Below, one piece after another: positions 2,923-58,047 of a stretch of DNA of 64,000 nt (position 1 is its first letter; every line of letters starts with the position of its first letter). The notes beneath the pieces were generated by a model, which worked only from the letters and a program-made list of their open reading frames with translations, was not told where the DNA came from and made no database searches. Made by a program: the position numbers and the translations under genes. Where the stretch lies: contig JACPKF010000002.1 of the NCBI GenBank assembly GCA_016187125.1, forward strand, positions 1,469 through 65,468, read 5' to 3'. This DNA is from Candidatus Saccharimonadota bacterium (GTDB taxonomy: Bacteria > Patescibacteriota > Saccharimonadia > Saccharimonadales > UBA10212).

Positions 2923-3061
2923 CTAAGCCTCCGGAGGCAATTACCAATTTACAATTCTGCAATTTACAATCAATTTTCAATGACTCAATTTCCAAAGCCT
3001 TGCTTATTTGACCTTTTGGTTCTTGAATGAAAATTGAAAATTGAAAATTGAAAATTTTCAT

Positions 3062-7047: not shown

Positions 7048-7181
7048 GGGCGGACTTGTTCAGCATTAATCTCTTCGAGCCTGAGCTGATTCGGTCTGGG
7101 CCTCAGAGCCGAAGGCTTGAGCTAGTCGCCCGTTCGATAAACTCAGGGCGACCCTGAACGATAGTCGAATGGGTCGAAGGG

Positions 7182-8238: not shown

Positions 8239-8265
8239 CTGCTGCAAGGCTAGGCCTTGCAGCAG
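8239..8265. repeat. perfect 12-bp-stem hairpin (ctgctgcaaggc-tag-gccttgcagcag) beside the RAYT-like gene
   Basis: Read directly; the two arms are exact reverse complements. It lies in the divergent spacer between gmd and the transposase gene. Confidence 0.8.
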
Positions 8266-26815: not shown

Positions 26816-27031
26816 CCCAGGCCTCCTTCGGAGGCAATTATCAATTTACAATTTACAATTTTCATTAAATTTACATTTAACAGTCTCCAAACATAGCTTA
26901 GGGCTTGAAGTTGAGTGCAAGAATTTTTTTTGGGCTGTGGACTGTTAGCTGTGGACTGTGGACTCATTTTTCTCCCACCCTCTTTGGTTATGCGGCTTGC
27001 CCGCCTAAAATCTCTAAGAAATTTTGATGGG

Positions 27032-28628: not shown

Positions 28629-28862
28629 TATATCAGAAGGTCAGTCAACGATTTTTCGGCTAAAAGCTGTTAGCTAACAGCTCATAGCTATTTTCTGCAG
28701 GGTTCTGCAGGGATTGTCCCTGCAAACGGGGGAAATATTGTATAGTATATAGTCTTCGGGTTATTACCTTATTGTTTCCAGGGTGGTACCCTGTAAATGG
28801 GTCTCGGATTTCCAAGATTTCCAAGGACGGTTCTTGGAAAAATGATGGAGTAAATGGATCTC

Positions 28863-36630: not shown

Positions 36631-37077
36631 ATGACTGGCAAAATCAAAAAATTAATACTTCTGACGGTCTTAAGTCTTATCCCAATACTAATTCCCGCTT
36701 CGGCTTTGGCCGCTGTCGACTGCAGCCAGCCCAATTTATCCTCTAAACAGGCCATACAATGCGGCACTCAAGGAGCCAGCGGCAGCGACCAGGATCCCTC
36801 CGCTGCCGGAACCAACATTGATAATACTATCGCCAAATTTGTTAATGTCTTCTCGGTCATAATCGGCGTAATTGCCGTCGTCATGATTATTGTCGGTGGC
36901 TTCCGCTATATTACCAGTGCCGGTAACACCGAAAAGCTGACCCAGGCCAAAAACACTATTATGTATGCAATTATTGGCCTGGTGGTAGTAGCCTTAGCCC
37001 AAGCTATAAGTAGCTTTGTACTATCTAAAACGACCGATTGTGTAAAAGGCAAAACCAGCACCGGCCAAAAGTGCTAA
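36631..37077 (+). CDS. VirB2/TrbC-like T4SS pilin paralog 5
   Basis: GGFRYITSAGNTEKLTQAKNTIMYAIIGLVVVALAQ, a motif shared with paralogs 6 and 7. Confidence 0.7.
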   Translation: MTGKIKKLILLTVLSLIPILIPASALAAVDCSQPNLSSKQAIQCGTQGASGSDQDPSAAGTNIDNTIAKFVNVFSVIIGVIAVVMIIVGGFRYITSAGNTEKLTQAKNTIMYAIIGLVVVALAQAISSFVLSKTTDCVKGKTSTGQKC

Positions 37078-37517: not shown

Positions 37518-37946
37518 ATGCTTCAAAAAATAAAAACTTTAATTATGTCTTTGTCGCTGCTCTTTGCTTTTGCTGCGCCTGTTTCTCTGCCGGTTGCTGT
37601 TTCGGCTGTATCACCCGATGTTCAAAAAAGTGTTTGTGAGGGCGCTAAAAAACTACAAATTTCCCCTGATAATCCCACTGGCGAACCATGTGCAGAAGAT
37701 ACAGATGGTGGTGGCACTACTAAAGTAAATCTTCTCTTGCAAAAAATCATCAATATTTTCTCAGTAATTGTCGGCGTAGTAGCCGTCGTCATGATCATCT
37801 GGGGCGGCTTCAAGTATATAACCAGCGGCGGTACCTCCGAGAAAGTGACTACTGCCAAAAACACCATTCTATACGCGCTTATTGGTCTGATCATTGTGGC
37901 CTTGGCTCAAATAATCGTCCGCTTCGTACTAGCAAAATCCACTTAA
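37518..37946 (+). CDS. VirB2/TrbC-like T4SS pilin paralog 6
   Basis: GGFKYITSGGTSEKVTTAKNTILYALIGLIIVALAQ, with a signal peptide and a Cys pair. Confidence 0.7.
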   Translation: MLQKIKTLIMSLSLLFAFAAPVSLPVAVSAVSPDVQKSVCEGAKKLQISPDNPTGEPCAEDTDGGGTTKVNLLLQKIINIFSVIVGVVAVVMIIWGGFKYITSGGTSEKVTTAKNTILYALIGLIIVALAQIIVRFVLAKST

Positions 37947-37991: not shown

Positions 37992-38402
37992 GTGAAATAC
38001 TTGTCTAGCTTTGCCCTTATCTTGAGTGTATGGCTGGTTATGGCCTTGGGCCAGGCACCGCCGGTTTTTGCTCAGAATGGCCAGCAACAAATCAACCGAG
38101 GCTTATGCGCCGGCGCCAATTTGCAGTTCACCGAAGGCGGTGCCAGCTGCCAAGGCGGAGATGATGCCACCGCCAAGTTTAATCAAATCATTAAGGTTGT
38201 TATTAATCTGCTGTCAGTCATCGTCGGCATAGTTGCCGTCATCATGATTATTGTCGGCGGCCTGCGCTATATTACCAGTGGCGGTAGCGACACCAGTGTT
38301 ACCAGTGCCAAAAACACCATTCTTTACGCTGTTATTGGCTTGATTATCGTCGCCCTCGCCCAAGTATTAGTCCGCTTTGTCCTTCGCAAAATTACCCAAT
38401 AG
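37992..38402 (+). CDS. VirB2/TrbC-like T4SS pilin paralog 7
   Basis: GTG start; GGLRYITSGGSDTSVTSAKNTILYAVIGLIIVALAQ. Confidence 0.7.
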   Translation: MKYLSSFALILSVWLVMALGQAPPVFAQNGQQQINRGLCAGANLQFTEGGASCQGGDDATAKFNQIIKVVINLLSVIVGIVAVIMIIVGGLRYITSGGSDTSVTSAKNTILYAVIGLIIVALAQVLVRFVLRKITQ

Positions 38403-41115: not shown

Positions 41116-41198
41116 GCCATCGATTATACCAGTGAGCCTAAAAACAGAGGTTATTTGTTATTATGTATTAGCTATTCTAGAAAAGCGTAGCGATACCC

Positions 41199-41250
41199 AA
41201 TTTTGCAAAATCGTGCTTAGCAGATGTTTGCAAAATTGAAGAGGAGGAAG
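41199..41250 (+). promoter_or_regulatory. conserved hairpin leader motif, copy 1 (upstream of tRNA-Ser GCT)
   Basis: aattttgcaa-N19-ttgcaaaatt followed by gaagaggagg. Related copies lie at 42396..42447 and 47662..47710. Confidence 0.6.
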
Positions 41251-42257: not shown

Positions 42258-42395
42258 GTAATGAGACAAAACCAATGGTTTTTTCTCATCAGACCTGACG
42301 AAATGAATTCGTCTCCGCTAATAGCGGATCGGTCCGGCTCTTTTTCCTCTATACATCTTAAAGCCCTAAATGGTAAAATAACCCCTGTTCTTACC

Positions 42396-42447
42396 AATTT
42401 TACAAGATCGTGCTTTAGCAGATTCTTGCAAAATTGAGAGGAGGAAG
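42396..42447 (+). promoter_or_regulatory. conserved hairpin leader motif, copy 2 (upstream of tRNA-Arg)
   Basis: aattttacaag-N18-cttgcaaaatt followed by gagaggagg. Confidence 0.6.
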
Positions 42448-42507
42448 CAACCAAAGGCTGAAGATAATTTGTTATCTGACAAATTAAGGAAGCCAGTCCG
42501 TCGATTC

Positions 42508-42695
42508 CGACCCGTTCGACAAGCTCAGGGTCGTCCTGAGTGAAATCGAATGGACGACGAGCACCCGTAGCTCCCGCCTACGCCACCCCCTTCGTTATCT
42601 CCTTCGCTGAAGCTACGAAGATCAAGGAAGCTTCCTCCTTCGCAAATGCTTCGGAGAACAAATCGGAGGTCAAGAAGGCTTCGGCGGGCAGGCAG
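42508..42695. repeat. composite of two dispersed repeat families in the tRNA-Arg leader
   Basis: 42508..42562 resembles 7125..7181 and 49957..50013. 42581..42695 is ~90% identical over shared blocks to 55939..56029 inside murE. Confidence 0.7.
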
Positions 42696-42719: not shown

Positions 42720-42794
42720 GTCCCCATAGTTTAATGGATAGAACACTGGCTTGCGGAGCCGGCGATAGAGGTTCGAATCCTCTTGGGGGCACCA
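42720..42794 (+). tRNA. tRNA-Arg with genomically encoded GCG anticodon, CCA encoded
   Basis: Hand-folded: acceptor GTCCCCA/TGGGGGC, anticodon stem CTGGC/GCCGG, loop TTGCGGA, T-arm AGAGG-TTCGAAT-CCTCT. Confidence 0.7.
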
Positions 42795-44020: not shown

Positions 44021-45232
44021 ATGTTAAAAAGCGCTCACAATTTGGTTAAAAGTGTTGGTAAAAAGCTGAAGCTTGACGATGCGACCGTAGAAAAGCTTCT
44101 GAAGGCGGACGCGGAGCACCAGTTTGAAATTAGTTTGAAAAGTGGGAAGCAGTTTAAGGCTTACCGTGTCCAGCATAGCAATAAACTAGGCCCCTATAAA
44201 GGCGGAATCAGATTCCATCCTCGGGTGAATCTGGATGAAATAAGAACTCTGGCAACTTTAATGAGTCTTAAAACTGCCGCTGTGGGGCTGCCGCTTGGTG
44301 GCAGCAAAGGCGGCGTGACGGTGGATCCAAAGGTACTTACTCAAGACGAACTCGAGGAACTAAGTCGTAAGTATGTACAGCACCTGCAATCTCATATAGG
44401 ACCGGCTAAAGACGTCCCTGCTCCTGATGTAAATACCAATGCCCAAATCATGGATTGGATGATTGACGAATACCAAAATCTGACTGGCAACCTGAGCCAG
44501 GCTAGTTTTACCGGTAAAAGTCTGACTAGTGGCGGCAGTGAAGGCCGTGATGAAGCCACCGGCCGCGGCGGCGTAATTGCCCTGCGCGAACTCCTTATGC
44601 TACAAGGATTATCCTTGCAGCATAAGGGGGATCAGGTATTGCGTTTTGCCGTTCAGGGATTTGGCAATGTGGGTTCGAATTTTGCAATCGTCGCTGAGCA
44701 GGAGCAGCCCAACTGGAAGTTAATTGCCGCCAGTGATTCTGGTGCCACTATTTTTGACTCAGAAGGACTTAGTGCCTCTAGTCTGGCGGCCTTTAAAAAA
44801 CAAGCTGGCCGCTTTAGCCAGTACAAAAATGCTCAAGTCCTAAACAGTGACGCAATATTGTTCCTGGAAGTTGATGTTTTGGTCCTAGCGGCCCTGGAGG
44901 ATGCCATAACAAATAAGAACATGCAGCAGGTTAAGGCCCGACTTATCGTTGAGCTAGCCAATGGGCCGATTAACGAAACCGCCTATGGTTACTTGGCCAA
45001 AAAAGGCATAACTGTTTTACCGGACATTATCACCAATGCCGGAGGCGTTATTGTAAGTTATTTGGAGTGGCTACAAAATAAGGCTGATGAGCGTTGGACG
45101 CGCGCCAAAGTTAACACCGAGCTAGAACAGTACATGATTAAAGCCATAAGCGAGGTTTATAAAACTTCTAGTTCACAAAATCTGACACTCAAAGAAGCGG
45201 CAATTATGCTAGCTCTCAAACGCCTGACTTAA
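44021..45232 (+). CDS. gdh: Glu/Leu/Phe/Val dehydrogenase family (glutamate dehydrogenase-like)
   Basis: Catalytic region KGGIRFHP...LPLGGSKGG and the Rossmann motif AVQGFGNVG. Confidence 0.85.
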   Translation: MLKSAHNLVKSVGKKLKLDDATVEKLLKADAEHQFEISLKSGKQFKAYRVQHSNKLGPYKGGIRFHPRVNLDEIRTLATLMSLKTAAVGLPLGGSKGGVTVDPKVLTQDELEELSRKYVQHLQSHIGPAKDVPAPDVNTNAQIMDWMIDEYQNLTGNLSQASFTGKSLTSGGSEGRDEATGRGGVIALRELLMLQGLSLQHKGDQVLRFAVQGFGNVGSNFAIVAEQEQPNWKLIAASDSGATIFDSEGLSASSLAAFKKQAGRFSQYKNAQVLNSDAILFLEVDVLVLAALEDAITNKNMQQVKARLIVELANGPINETAYGYLAKKGITVLPDIITNAGGVIVSYLEWLQNKADERWTRAKVNTELEQYMIKAISEVYKTSSSQNLTLKEAAIMLALKRLT

Positions 45233-45393
45233 ACAATGTTCGATGTCTCATAGAATAAGGCGAGACCAAAAGCAATGCAGTATTGCTATTTATTTGCTAC
45301 AAGGATAATCCTTGTAGCAAATCTTGTAGCAAATAAATAGTCTCTAGACTACTGACGGAGAGTGCTTTTACAGTTAATAAATTTAGTAGTCTG

Positions 45394-47553: not shown

Positions 47554-47641
47554 TGGCGGAGAGGGAGAGATTCGAACTCTCGGTACCTTGCGGCACACTG
47601 CTTTTCGAGAGCAGCGCCTTCAACCACTCGGCCACCTCTCC
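47554..47641 (-). tRNA. tRNA-Ser (anticodon CGA), CCA encoded
   Basis: Hand-folded: acceptor GGAGAGG/CCTCTCC, anticodon loop CTCGAAA, long variable arm, T-arm GAGAG-TTCGAAT-CTCTC. Confidence 0.85.
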
Positions 47642-47943: not shown

Positions 47944-48058
47944 TGATTCGTTCCACTCACCATCAGCTAAAAGTCCTTAGCTCAGAGTCCTTAGCCACCT
48001 CATTTAGGTTAATAGCTAACAGCTCTCAGCTTTCAGCTACAGCGACGGAAGGAGCTGC

Positions 48059-48460: not shown

Positions 48461-48541
48461 TTCACTTTCTAGCCTTCTAATGCTATTTTCTAGTTCCTAA
48501 TTTCTATTTTCTGGTACTATAGTGCTAGATGAGGTGGCGTT

Positions 48542-53691: not shown

Positions 53692-54891
53692 CTACATAGA
53701 TAGACCTGGATTAACCTCGAGGGAGTACGGATCGGCGGGTTTTTGTTTTATAGCGGCTTTAAAGTAGCCTAAACTGGCTACCATGGCGGCGTTGTCGGTG
53801 CAAAGTTTGATATCAGGGAAAAAGACCGGAGTCTTGGCGAATTTTTTGGCCACTGTTTGGCGCAAAAGCTGATTGGCGGCAACACCGCCGGCGATAACGA
53901 TAGAATTTGGCTGGAATTCTTTCTCAGCTTTCTTTAATGACTCAACCAGTGTTTCAATAGCAATATACTGAAAACTGGCGGCTATATCGGCTTTCTGGGT
54001 CTCATTTAAGGCTTCAGGCAGCTTAGTAGAAGGAAAGGTGTAATCATGACCACTTTGTTCTTGAGCTACTCTTAAAACCGCTGTTTTTAGGCCGGAGAAA
54101 CTAAAAGGATAAGCATTAGTGTGATAGGTTGAACCTATCACATTGTCGAATTTGGCTTTGGGGAACTTAAAAGCGTGAGGATTACCTTTGGTAGCAACTC
54201 TAGCGACGGATTGGCCACCGGGGTAGGGCAGGCCGAGCATTTTGGCTACTTTATCAAAAGCTTCGCCTACGGCATCATCTGTGGTTTGGCCTAAAACTTG
54301 GTAATTCATATGGCTTTTCATCAACACCAGCTGGGTGTGGCCACCGCTCACAATAAGCGCCAGAATAGGAAATTCTGGCTGCTTATTGTTCAAGCTAATA
54401 GCTGTTAGCTGAGAGCTGTTAGCTTTTTCGGTGAGGAAGGCGGCGTAAATGTGGGCCTGGACGTGATCAACAGCATACACGGGTTTGTTTTTGGCAATAG
54501 CTAGAGTCCGGGCCGTTAAAACGCCAATCAGTAAACTGCCAAGCAACCCTGGGCCCTGAGTAACGGCGATAGCATCAATCTGCGACCAAAGGTCGTCAGA
54601 TTGAGGAATTAGCAATTGGGAATTAGCAATTAGCTTTGATTTTTTACTATTTTCTAATTTCTGATTTCTATTTTCTCCGAAAGCATCCCGTAGGGCTTTG
54701 TCTATCACCGGGATGATGCTTTCTATGTGGCTGCGGGCGGCGATTTCTGGCACCACTCCTCCGAAGGCGGCGTGCAGATCTACCGAGCTGGCCACCACAT
54801 TGCTGAGCAGTTTAAGCCTCCGCCGGCCGGCGGATTCAACTACTGCCGCGGCCGTCTCGTCACAACTGGTTTCTATTCCTAAAACCTTCAT
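53692..54891 (-). CDS. tsaD: tRNA N6-adenosine threonylcarbamoyltransferase TsaD with two low-complexity insertions
   Basis: MKVLGIETSCDETAAAVV, VSGGHTQL and GLPYPGG. At 399 aa it is ~60 aa longer than usual. Confidence 0.9.
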   Translation of the reverse strand: MKVLGIETSCDETAAAVVESAGRRRLKLLSNVVASSVDLHAAFGGVVPEIAARSHIESIIPVIDKALRDAFGENRNQKLENSKKSKLIANSQLLIPQSDDLWSQIDAIAVTQGPGLLGSLLIGVLTARTLAIAKNKPVYAVDHVQAHIYAAFLTEKANSSQLTAISLNNKQPEFPILALIVSGGHTQLVLMKSHMNYQVLGQTTDDAVGEAFDKVAKMLGLPYPGGQSVARVATKGNPHAFKFPKAKFDNVIGSTYHTNAYPFSFSGLKTAVLRVAQEQSGHDYTFPSTKLPEALNETQKADIAASFQYIAIETLVESLKKAEKEFQPNSIVIAGGVAANQLLRQTVAKKFAKTPVFFPDIKLCTDNAAMVASLGYFKAAIKQKPADPYSLEVNPGLSM

Positions 54892-54995: not shown

Positions 54996-56396
54996 TTGGT
55001 TAACGGGATGAATCCGAAAAAGCTGGCTCGCAAGGTCTTGCCGCGGCGCGGCGTGCGCCTGGCCGAGGAGACCTATCGGAAGGGCAGGGTATATAGCCTC
55101 CAAGCTCTCAACCTATTTCCGGCCAGAGGCCTGCGGGTAATAGGCGTAACCGGAACAAATGGCAAGACTACAACCTGTAATTTTATAAACGAAATGCTGA
55201 AAAACGCCGGCTATAAAACGGCTCTGTACAGCACAGCCATCATAGAAATTGATAGCCAAAAGCGACTTAATGAATCTCACCGGACGGTGCCGTTGACCGC
55301 TGAGCTGATAGGGTTTTTCAAAGATGCCGCTAAAGCCAAGGTGGATTTTGTGGTTATGGAAGTCACCAGTATGGCTCTTGACCAGCATAAAATGATCGGT
55401 ATTCCGGTGGAAGTGGCGGTTATGACAAATCTTAGTCAAGAACACCTTGATTACCACGGGACTATGGAAAATTACGCGGCGGCCAAAGCCCGGTTATTTA
55501 ACAAATATATGCATCCCAAATATGCAGTGCTAAACCGTGACGAGCAGTGGTATGAGTATTTTGCCGGGCAAGCCTCCGGCGAAGTTATTTCTTATGGCAA
55601 AGACCAGGCCAGCTCCGTCAGGATTGTTAATATAAGCCCTACAACTAACGGCAGCGATTTCAGTCTGGAAATTGATGGAAAAAATCTGGATGCTCATAGC
55701 CAATTAGTTGGCGAATTTAATGTTTATAACGCCGCGGCGGCAGCTGCCGCGGGCTTGGCGATTGGCCTAGATAACCAACAAATCACCAGCGGTATTGCAA
55801 CTCTAAAAGGGGTGCCTGGGCGCATGGAAAAAATTGAAGCCGGGCAAGACTTTGAAGTGATTATAGACTACGCTGTTACACCCGACGCTCTAGCCAAAGC
55901 CCTGCAAGCTACAGCTCAAACCACAAAGGGCCCTCCATCGCCACCTCCTTCGCTGAAGCTACGAAGATCAAGAAAGCTTCCTCCTTCGCAAGTGCTTCGG
56001 AGGACAAGAAGGCTAGGGAGGGCAGGCAGGGTAATAGTTGTTTTTGGCGCGACGGGAGACCGTGATAAGTCTAAGCGGCCGCTTATGGGTGAAGTGGCTG
56101 CCAAATATGCTGATCGGATTTTTTTAACTGATGACGAAACCTATAGCGAAGATCCGGCCGCTATCCGCCGGGCCGTCTATGAGGGCATTTTGGCAGCTGG
56201 TGGCGCCACAAAAACCACCGAAATTGGCGATCGCCGCCGGGCGATTAAAGCCGCTTTTAATGACGCCAAACCAGGCGACACCGTGCTGCTAACTGGTATA
56301 GGCCATCAAACGACTCGCAATATGGGCGGGCACGAGGAGCCCTGGAATGAGCACGAAGTTGCCAAAGAGCTATTGAGCCAATTAACTAAAACCTAA
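54996..56396 (+). CDS. murE: UDP-N-acetylmuramoyl-L-alanyl-D-glutamate ligase (MurE) with a repeat-derived insertion
   Basis: GVTGTNGKTTT, DYAVTPDAL and VFGATGDRDKSKRP. The amino-acid substrate (DAP or Lys) cannot be told by eye. Confidence 0.85.
   Translation: MVNGMNPKKLARKVLPRRGVRLAEETYRKGRVYSLQALNLFPARGLRVIGVTGTNGKTTTCNFINEMLKNAGYKTALYSTAIIEIDSQKRLNESHRTVPLTAELIGFFKDAAKAKVDFVVMEVTSMALDQHKMIGIPVEVAVMTNLSQEHLDYHGTMENYAAAKARLFNKYMHPKYAVLNRDEQWYEYFAGQASGEVISYGKDQASSVRIVNISPTTNGSDFSLEIDGKNLDAHSQLVGEFNVYNAAAAAAAGLAIGLDNQQITSGIATLKGVPGRMEKIEAGQDFEVIIDYAVTPDALAKALQATAQTTKGPPSPPPSLKLRRSRKLPPSQVLRRTRRLGRAGRVIVVFGATGDRDKSKRPLMGEVAAKYADRIFLTDDETYSEDPAAIRRAVYEGILAAGGATKTTEIGDRRRAIKAAFNDAKPGDTVLLTGIGHQTTRNMGGHEEPWNEHEVAKELLSQLTKT
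55939..56029. repeat. dispersed repeat copy inside the murE coding sequence (paralog of 42581..42695)
   Basis: Shared blocks are ctccttcgctgaagctacgaagatcaag[a/g]aagcttcctccttcgcaa[g/a]tgcttcggag and caagaaggct...ggcaggcag. In murE it is translated as a basic/Pro-rich segment (PPSLKLRRSRKLPPSQVLRRTRRLGRAG). Confidence 0.75.
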
Positions 56397-57923: not shown

Positions 57924-58047
57924 TTGTGAGAAATATTCTTGACGAGAAGTTGGCACTCGGGTATTATGAGTGCTAATAATAGCTAATAGCCCATAGCTCT
58001 TAGCCGATAGCTAACCGCTAATCGCTATAAGCTACCAGCTGGAGAGA

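Follow-up and report, generated by a model that had tools for sequence, protein, structure and literature searches.

Hairpin-forming repeat DNA lies in frame within murE and in noncoding DNA upstream of a tRNA-Arg gene of a Saccharibacteria genome

How can nearly the same stretch of DNA be noncoding at one place in a genome and part of an essential cell-wall gene at another? This question is raised by a window of 64 kb (46% GC) from the Candidatus Saccharimonadota bacterium contig JACPKF010000002.1 (assembly GCA_016187125.1), in which one copy of a repeat lies upstream of the tRNA-Arg(GCG) gene and another lies inside murE, the gene for UDP-MurNAc-tripeptide synthetase. The two copies share an ungapped 76-nt match at 89% identity (42586-42661 versus 55932-56007), with a 63-nt core at 95% identity (blastn E 2e-24). 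The core is followed by a 12-nt indel and then by a further 21-25 nt at 86-88% identity (18/21 over 21 nt). The 19-mer CTTCGCTGAAGCTACGAAG was found at exactly two sites of the window when up to three mismatches were permitted, against 0.04 matches expected from shuffles. A third copy of the composite repeat was not found in the 64 kb. The original prediction, which was made from the letters alone, had described a dispersed repeat of ~90-115 nt. The similarity is real and lies far above chance, so a resemblance below chance expectation is contradicted by both the 19-mer count and the blastn match, and the coordinates were good to ~8 nt. The word dispersed applies to a 30-nt building block of the repeat and not to the composite, which has two copies only in the window. 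Two points had been missed: the repeat is put together from 30-nt hairpin units, both in tandem and nested, and these units form a family across many bacterial phyla.

Comparison with homologs indicates that the murE segment is an insertion and not a conserved part of MurE. The window MurE is 100% identical to an NCBI protein of a Candidatus Saccharibacteria metagenome-assembled genome (MAG), carries both Mur_ligase_M (PF08245) and Mur_ligase_C (PF02875), and matches solved MurE structures with an E-value of 3e-60. In the homolog alignment, the invariant MurE columns, including TGTNGKTTT and GDRD/KRP, are intact around the insert, whose peptide (G)PPSPPPSLKLRRSRKLPPSQVLRRTRRLGRA stands directly ahead of GRVIVVFGATGDRD. 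Exactly these 32 residues are missing, as one 32-column gap, in 18/18 of the closest homologs (59-74% identity); the longer homologs in the list differ at the termini only, and of the 120 best homologs, no other MurE carries an insert at this position. At the DNA level, alignment with the orthologous loci of the two closest homologs (L148 and L147) gave a single clean 96-nt gap, with the empty sites GGGC^AGGGT and GGGA^AAGGT in the orthologs and AAAGGGC[96 nt]AGGGTA in the window. The divergent tsaD-murE order of the window is kept in L148, the only ortholog available for the synteny comparison, since the L147 sequence ends just upstream of murE. An identical murE gene, insert included, is present in an independent Logan assembly of SRR12113385, so the insert did not come from one assembler alone. 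Its GC content is 57%, compared with 50% in the remainder of murE. Four of the six reading frames through it are open and one forward frame has a stop; the frame used by murE contains 10 Arg/Lys, 8 Pro and 0 acidic residues. The claims of the original prediction that the same DNA is noncoding before tRNA-Arg and coding within murE, that the murE copy keeps the frame, and that it adds a basic, proline-rich stretch to the protein are thus all borne out. Conservation of the segment in distant MurE orthologs, which would have spoken for an ancestral part of the protein, was not seen in any of the 18 closest homologs.

Each window copy holds two similar 30-nt stretches at 36-nt spacing, named U1 and U2 here (Table 1). 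A search pattern made of 18 fixed bases from these window units, CCTTCGCNNNNGCTNCGNAGNNCAAG, was scanned against IMG/VR and the GTDB species representatives. Matches in the thiolase genes L028, L039, L054, L094 and L122 were set aside as coding or chance matches, as were L073 and L125, which are probably of the same kind. After chance matches had been dropped, conservation was counted over 128 distinct instances from other organisms only (129 before the last removal). Conservation is limited to 30 columns and stops abruptly, and the flanks of the 128 instances are random. The unit reads Y CCTCC TTC GC-YRAR-GC TWC GGAGG R CAAG, which is a 26-nt hairpin with a CAAG tail and spans 10 codons. Columns outside the fixed pattern were conserved as well: columns 8-10 are C, C and T in 111/129 instances, with G28 in 119 and G31 in 115 of the same 129. 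Stem positions covary, as seen for the pairs 7-32 (UA 67, CG 40, GC 6, AU 2), 8-31 (CG 110, UA 4, AU 3, GC 3) and 18-21 (CG 56, UA 52, UG 7). Paired cells amounted to 94.6%, compared with 35-56% when the partners were slid by 1-3 columns, and 0/500 shuffles reached the observed value. This covariation supports that the unit forms a hairpin. RNA folding of the two window copies gave z-scores of -1.0 to -2.6 only; the stability of a single sequence is no proof of structure, which covariation across instances provides. When a profile hidden Markov model (HMM) was built from the foreign instances only, it recovered exactly four units in the window, with E-values from 3e-8 to 1e-6.

The murE copy can be parsed as one outer unit whose loop apex is interrupted by a 66-nt block, in which the spacer aaagct lies between U1 and U2; the sum of 30 and 66 nt is 96 nt, the size of the insert. 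The corresponding block in the tRNA-Arg leader is 61/66 identical (92%) and sits in an outer unit (CCCGCCTACGCC ... AAGGCTTCGGCGGGCAGG) plus an apparent, partly decayed middle unit. Between the outer units of the two copies there is a compensatory change, CCGCC/GGCGG versus CCTCC/GGAGG. Because the same 66-nt block is present at both loci, it would have been copied in one piece, either from one window locus to the other, as the comparison suggests, or to both from a third locus. The exact junction of U1, spacer and U2 had no match in the metagenome scan, so the dispersal of the 66-nt composite is documented for the two window copies only. Unrelated genomes show nesting at the same point, the loop apex between columns 18 and 19. 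In L061 (Doudnabacteria), a perfect outer unit is restored once a perfect 30-nt inner unit is taken out; nesting is similar in L104, L141, L044 and L012, and L142 looks triply nested by eye. We also considered CAAG as the target rather than a part of the unit, which was rejected because perfect nested cases such as L061 regain an intact outer loop only when all 30 nt are removed.

The pattern matched 14 times in IMG/VR viral contigs and at no fewer than 120 loci in GTDB species-representative genomes. Hosts among the matches listed include Patescibacteria (several of them Saccharibacteria), Planctomycetota, Verrucomicrobiota, Kiritimatiellia, Lentisphaeria, Bacteroidota, Balneolales, Alpha- and Gammaproteobacteria, Acidobacteriota, Cyanobacteriota, Elusimicrobia and others. 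The GC content of unit-bearing sites ranges from 31% to 72%. Nearly all unit-bearing genomes are MAGs, and the isolates are Aequorivita capsosiphonis DSM 23843 and Rhodohalobacter halophilus JZ3C29. The full-length consensus unit was not found in 50,697 phage genomes (INPHARED) or 72,556 plasmids (PLSDB), which gave chance-level partial matches only. Rfam had nothing at either window copy at E-values up to 10, and over the whole window at the gathering threshold it reported four tRNAs and nothing else; for a canonical tandem copy in L043 it returned chance-level eukaryotic and viral families only, far below gathering scores. Full-text literature searches returned no paper with the nucleotide or peptide strings, and by keyword only general papers on the MITE, REP and RPE elements discussed below came up; such absence is no proof of novelty. 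As far as could be determined, this 30-nt family of 10-codon hairpin inserts is undescribed.

About 40% of the instances lie in long open reading frames (ORFs) by the criteria used; 29 of these are in the coding orientation and 24 are opposed to it. All of the instances checked by Pfam (16/16) are in recognisable, mostly housekeeping genes, on either strand and in at least six cases on the opposite one. The first ten genes encode RecF, a peptide release factor, TsaD, TatD, topoisomerase I (TopA), TGT, GltX, a copper P-type ATPase, ArgRS and G6PD; the unit is inside a Pfam domain envelope in 9/10 of them, and the exception is the ATPase, where it falls between the envelopes of HMA and E1-E2. 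The second six encode a PMT_2 glycosyltransferase (in the Aequorivita isolate), MutL, alanine racemase (Alr), TatD, ThrRS and ABC-F. Here the unit is within the domain envelope in alanine racemase and TatD and outside the best-matched stretches in the other four: MutL has it in the linker joining the two C-terminal domains, ABC-F ahead of the C-terminal domain, ThrRS on the N-terminal side of tRNA_SAD, and the glycosyltransferase on the C-terminal side of the PMT_2 stretch. By eye, the unit was also seen in LeuRS of two genomes, L040 and L112. The commonest peptide reading is (S/P)SFAKASE(D/G)K; others are LLRQGFGGQ and PPSLKLRRT, the last being the murE frame. A TatD alignment aimed at an exact 10-aa gap was not clean, because the inserts in TatD are larger composites. 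In four high-GC IMG/VR viral contigs (L001, L002, L007 and L008), the unit lies exactly between a stop codon and the next start, with GGAGG, paired with CCTCC, 5-15 nt ahead of the ATG; the unit may have been co-opted in phage contigs as a structured ribosome-binding site.

An AlphaFold model of MurE built on the alignment had a predicted local distance difference test score (pLDDT) of 84 and a predicted template modelling score (pTM) of 0.83, and residues 313-341, which belong to the insert, form the only model segment with pLDDT below 50. This low-confidence loop sits between the helix 296-309 and the strand 346-350, which leads into the GDRD motif. The phmmer match to the PDB MurE entry 4bub breaks into two pieces exactly at the insert. 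The original prediction had raised the question of whether the insert falls in a surface loop; in the model it forms the one loop of low confidence in a MurE that is otherwise confidently predicted, with a helix before it and the first strand of the Mur_ligase_C region after it. As the loop is at the N-terminal end of the GDRD-bearing strand in a Rossmann-fold topology, we infer that the insert faces away from the active-site, substrate-binding side. Most likely, the insert is translated and MurE tolerates it as a surface loop of 32 residues, disordered and strongly basic. It would persist because its length is a multiple of three, the used frame is open and it landed in a loop between secondary-structure elements.

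The other copy ends 25 nt before tRNA-Arg(GCG). An upstream element of ~45 nt, CCAATTTTGCAAAATCGTGCTTAGCAGATTCTTGCAAAATTGA, is common to all four tRNA genes of the window; it fits a sigma-70 consensus scan poorly and is probably a common tRNA promoter or leader. The tRNA-Ser(GCT) and tRNA-Arg genes have a common leader ending in GTCGATTCCGAC, which abuts the tRNA in tRNA-Ser(GCT). In tRNA-Arg, ~210 nt of repeats part this leader from the tRNA, beginning with a hairpin of a second family and continuing with the nested 30-nt units. The upstream copy thus also appears to be an insertion, in this case into a presumably transcribed pre-tRNA leader. Its label as the tRNA-Arg leader in the original prediction is a reasonable inference; the copy lies between the conserved upstream element and the tRNA. 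Small ORFs that overlap the upstream copy extend into the tRNA and are not credible genes. The second-family hairpin has an 8-bp outer stem and a 6-bp inner stem, and one of its frames reads FDKLRVVLSE; related peptide strings (LRQAQ...) occur within LeuRS and ArgRS of other genomes of the candidate phyla radiation.

Table 1. Positions in the window of the two repeat copies, their parts and neighbouring features.
Feature	Position	Strand	Basis or remark
Extent of similar stretches	42586-42695 upstream of tRNA-Arg; 55932-56029 inside murE	both +	
murE ORF (UDP-MurNAc-tripeptide synthetase)	54996..56396	+	466 aa from first TTG; public annotation 462 aa
In-frame insert, 96 nt = 32 aa	55931..56026, equivalently 55932-56027	+	Homolog and ortholog gaps
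Predicted peptides across the two insert junctions: TTKGPPSPPPSLK; LGRAGRVIVVFGATGDR			
murE copy, outer unit, 5' half (CCCTCCATCGCC) up to loop apex	55931..55942	+	Manual parse; pairs with GGGAGGG at 56017-56023
murE copy, U1, ACCTCCTTCGCTGAAGCTACGAAGATCAAG	55943..55972	+	Profile HMM E 5e-07
murE copy, U2, TCCTCCTTCGCAAGTGCTTCGGAGGACAAG	55979..56008	+	Profile HMM E 2.9e-08; perfect 6-bp outer stem, 6/6 pairs in structural scan
murE copy, outer unit, 3' half (AAGGCTAGGGAGGGCAGG)	56009..56026	+	Manual parse; 18/21 identical to 42675-42695
Composite upstream of tRNA-Arg	42573..42695	+	Sequence, HMM, alignment to murE copy
tRNA-Arg composite, 5' halves	outer 42573-42585; middle 42586-42596	+	
tRNA-Arg composite, U1	42597-42626	+	HMM match 42598-42626, E 1.2e-06
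tRNA-Arg composite, U2	42633-42662, after spacer gaagct	+	HMM match 42633-42661, E 1.4e-07
tRNA-Arg composite, 3' halves	middle 42663-42674; outer 42675-42692	+	
tRNA-Arg(GCG)	42720..42794	+	ARAGORN; Rfam tRNA model 64 bits
Conserved upstream element and leader common to other tRNA genes	42392..42510	+	Alignment of four tRNA upstream regions
Sites of the upstream element	42392-42434; 41195-41245; - strand upstream of tRNA-Ser genes at 47641 and 41115		
Element A, second-family hairpin repeat CCGTTCGACAAGCTCAGGGTCGTCCTGAGTGAAATCGAATGG	42511..42555	+	Other copy 7128-7175; blastn
tsaD repeat stretches	54606-54689; 54394-54428	-	
CCTCCGGAGG / CCTTCGGAGG hairpin-heptamer loci	2928-2956 and 26825-26853; 3023-3056 and 26836-26869		

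We consider it probable that the murE segment arose by the frame-preserving insertion of small, hairpin-forming, dispersed repeat DNA. The units would be non-autonomous selfish elements, mobile or spread by recombination and nearly neutral; some hairpin-recognising activity supplied in trans, or recombination of units with one another, may have driven their spread. Several points weigh against this reading. No transposase, target-site rule or excision product was identified, and column counts over the instances gave no conserved flanking tetranucleotide. Direct flank repeats of 5 nt or longer were observed 33 times versus ~13 expected, with no regular target duplication; they vary in length and position and mostly reflect units embedded in tandem heptamer repeats. 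Inverted flank repeats of 5 nt or longer were observed 28 times versus ~10.5 expected, in units at the apex of larger hairpins, and different loci have unrelated flanks. The native site GGGCAGG is similar to the 3' end of the unit itself, which makes a microhomology-guided copy event a live alternative to transposition, and such microhomology-mediated copying could have placed the insert. The composite is known in the source genome from two copies, both within the window. With four of the six frames open, openness alone is weak evidence for translation, and a basic loop in an essential enzyme might be selected rather than merely tolerated. A wider proposal, which we advance tentatively and rate somewhat short of an even chance, is that the unit is an undescribed, horizontally spread, self-nesting micro-element in at least ten bacterial phyla and in phage contigs. 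It would survive preferentially as in-frame inserts (SFAKASEDK, LLRQGFGGQ, PPSLKLRRT) in essential genes (murE, leuS, gltX, argS, topA, recF, tsaD, mutL), and heptamers together with it would be a general source of unexplained low-complexity inserts in the proteins of the candidate phyla radiation and of other uncultured bacteria.

The units might instead be functional motifs kept by selection, with the murE copy selected for an RNA or DNA function, such as a protein binding site, an mRNA-stabilising or translation-modulating hairpin (with CCUCC and GGAGG paired) or an uptake-signal-like sequence. Conservation across phyla is indeed strong at 31% to 72% GC and includes unpaired positions (the TTC/TWC internal loop and the CAAG tail), the stem covariation indicates selection on, or templating of, structure, and several viral contigs carry the unit between stop codon and ATG with GGAGG at Shine-Dalgarno distance. 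We nevertheless regard this explanation as unlikely. The units occur on either gene strand (29 same versus 24 opposite), which argues against a single mRNA-level role; nesting, tandem arrays and heptamer settings are the behaviour of proliferating DNA; orthologs, including the syntenic L148, manage without the insert; and no Rfam family was matched. That the insert is an adaptive loop of MurE, making a new contact with the membrane, a nucleic acid or a divisome partner and using the repeat as mere raw material, would account for its 10 Arg/Lys and 8 Pro residues without an acidic one, and for a frame (PPSLKLRR...) that is not the commonest frame in other genes (SFAKASEDK). This seems quite improbable to us, as other MurE proteins among the 120 best homologs have no insert at this site, the segment is modelled as disordered, the same DNA is noncoding at the tRNA-Arg locus, and the neighbouring tsaD carries in-frame repeat DNA of another kind, which points to general tolerance rather than specific adaptation.

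It is very improbable that the insert is lost on the way to the mature protein, by excision from the mRNA or by bypass in translation. The compact nested hairpin fold (-38.7 kcal/mol) would suit such a process, and the same sequence in the pre-tRNA leader would go by processing; yet the fold has a z-score of only -1.0 and is not significantly more stable than its own shuffles, known bacterial mechanisms include none that excises a 96-nt hairpin from mRNA, and an exact multiple of three with no stop in the used frame is a pattern expected only if the insert is translated. Scarcely any weight is left for similarity by chance or low complexity, or for an artefact of metagenome assembly, which the MAG origin of the source genome and of nearly all unit-bearing genomes might suggest. 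This explanation is already effectively refuted by the match at E 2e-24, by the kept frame, by the identical gene in an independent assembly and by the units in two isolates, one of which, in Aequorivita capsosiphonis, is inside the PMT_2 gene.

Other repeats of the window were also recorded. The tsaD gene (53692-54891, - strand) has a 28-aa in-frame insert, RDAFGENRNQKLENSKKSKLIANSQLLI, relative to the syntenic ortholog L148 (69% identity); this insert is 84 nt long and consists of 12 heptamers of the GAAAWTA and CTAATTG types, and a second, smaller tsaD insert is built of GCTAACA-type heptamers. Heptamer repeats of the tsaD types are also intergenic at 47966-48042, 48463-48515, 28659-28700 and 57980-58037. 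The same TsaD loop, at alignment columns ~160-180 just before the conserved VSGGHT, holds a 30-nt unit in L058 and heptamers in the window, and by this comparison appears to be a permissive hotspot. In two JGI metagenome contigs (L137 and L145), a unit with the unusual loop of the window U2 (GCAAATGC) stands in frame within an ORF longer than 620 aa, directly after six CAAATTA-type heptamers and reading IIQITNDKLQISNQISSFANASEDKQ, and heptamers and unit were inserted together. Within the window, a hairpin of CCTCCGGAGG / CCTTCGGAGG followed by CAATTTA-type heptamers is present at two loci, and this hairpin-plus-heptamer layout is the same as that around 30-nt units in other phyla. A perfect or near-perfect 25-nt palindrome, TGCTACAAGGATTATCCTTGCAGCA, occurs three times (8240-8264, 44598-44622 and 45295-45319). 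A 197-nt direct repeat with 70-72% identity is also present in three copies (36839-37035, 37747-37943 and 38200-38396), which are probably repeated domains of one gene.

Among known systems, the small dispersed repeats (SDRs) and the Rickettsia palindromic elements (RPEs) are by analogy the closest to the 30-nt family, which by unit size and host range appears to belong to neither. SDR1-8 of Elhai et al. 2008 are reportedly hairpins of 21-27 nt with compensatory changes, which are self-nested and often located in tandem heptamers. The 30-nt unit resembles SDRs in being a hairpin with compensatory changes that nests in its own copies, and the heptamer-repeat context is shared by L137/L145, L111, L126, L132, L019 and L079. 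SDRs are described as confined to Nostocaceae, one cyanobacterial subgroup, in papers citing them (PMC3116915, PMC5861425). Such descriptions set them apart from the 30-nt family, which crosses phyla and in which in-frame copies in housekeeping genes are prominent. RPEs are palindromic repeats of ~100-150 bp in Rickettsia and relatives that occur intergenically and in frame within unrelated housekeeping genes, with peptide segments compatible with the protein fold (Ogata et al. 2000, summarised in PMC10969869). The likeness to RPEs lies in the in-frame insertion into unrelated genes together with noncoding copies, as seen here in murE and in 16 genes elsewhere; judged by these RPE descriptions, the family differs in its 30-nt unit, its composites formed by nesting, its many phyla and its Saccharibacteria host.

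REP/REPIN sequences (repetitive extragenic palindromes) are extragenic and species-specific, present in hundreds of copies, typically arranged as inverted doublets and linked to REP-associated tyrosine transposases (RAYTs) (PMC3116915). The 30-nt units are, like them, short, GC-rich, imperfect palindromes that are dispersed and carry a short conserved non-palindromic tail beside the hairpin, whereas they differ in having in-gene copies, in being direct tandem or nested, in crossing phyla, and in occupying two loci in the 64 kb of the window. [quoted passage not shown] The 30-nt family would likewise be a non-autonomous repeat that may sit in ORFs and add peptide sequence, while the size, terminal repeats, regular duplications and IS parent of MITEs are not demonstrable here.

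The murE locus provides a clean natural experiment, in which an essential Mur ligase carries a loop, basic and predicted to be disordered, from DNA that is noncoding elsewhere, with empty sites in the orthologs. The wider reach shows in conserved domains of other proteins, among them aminoacyl-tRNA synthetases, topoisomerase I, RecF, MutL and TsaD, which hold the same 30-nt hairpin. In practical terms, such inserts break profile alignments, as at the match to MurE 4bub, and both gene calls and alignments of phylogenetic markers can be misled by them. Mobility of the unit, if real, would explain many of the odd, low-complexity protein inserts and 'hypothetical peptides' of metagenome annotations, and the lower size limit of mobile DNA would fall, the unit then being among the smallest mobile elements known. 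The Rickettsia observation of 'selfish DNA in protein-coding genes' would then be extended to much of the uncultured bacteria.

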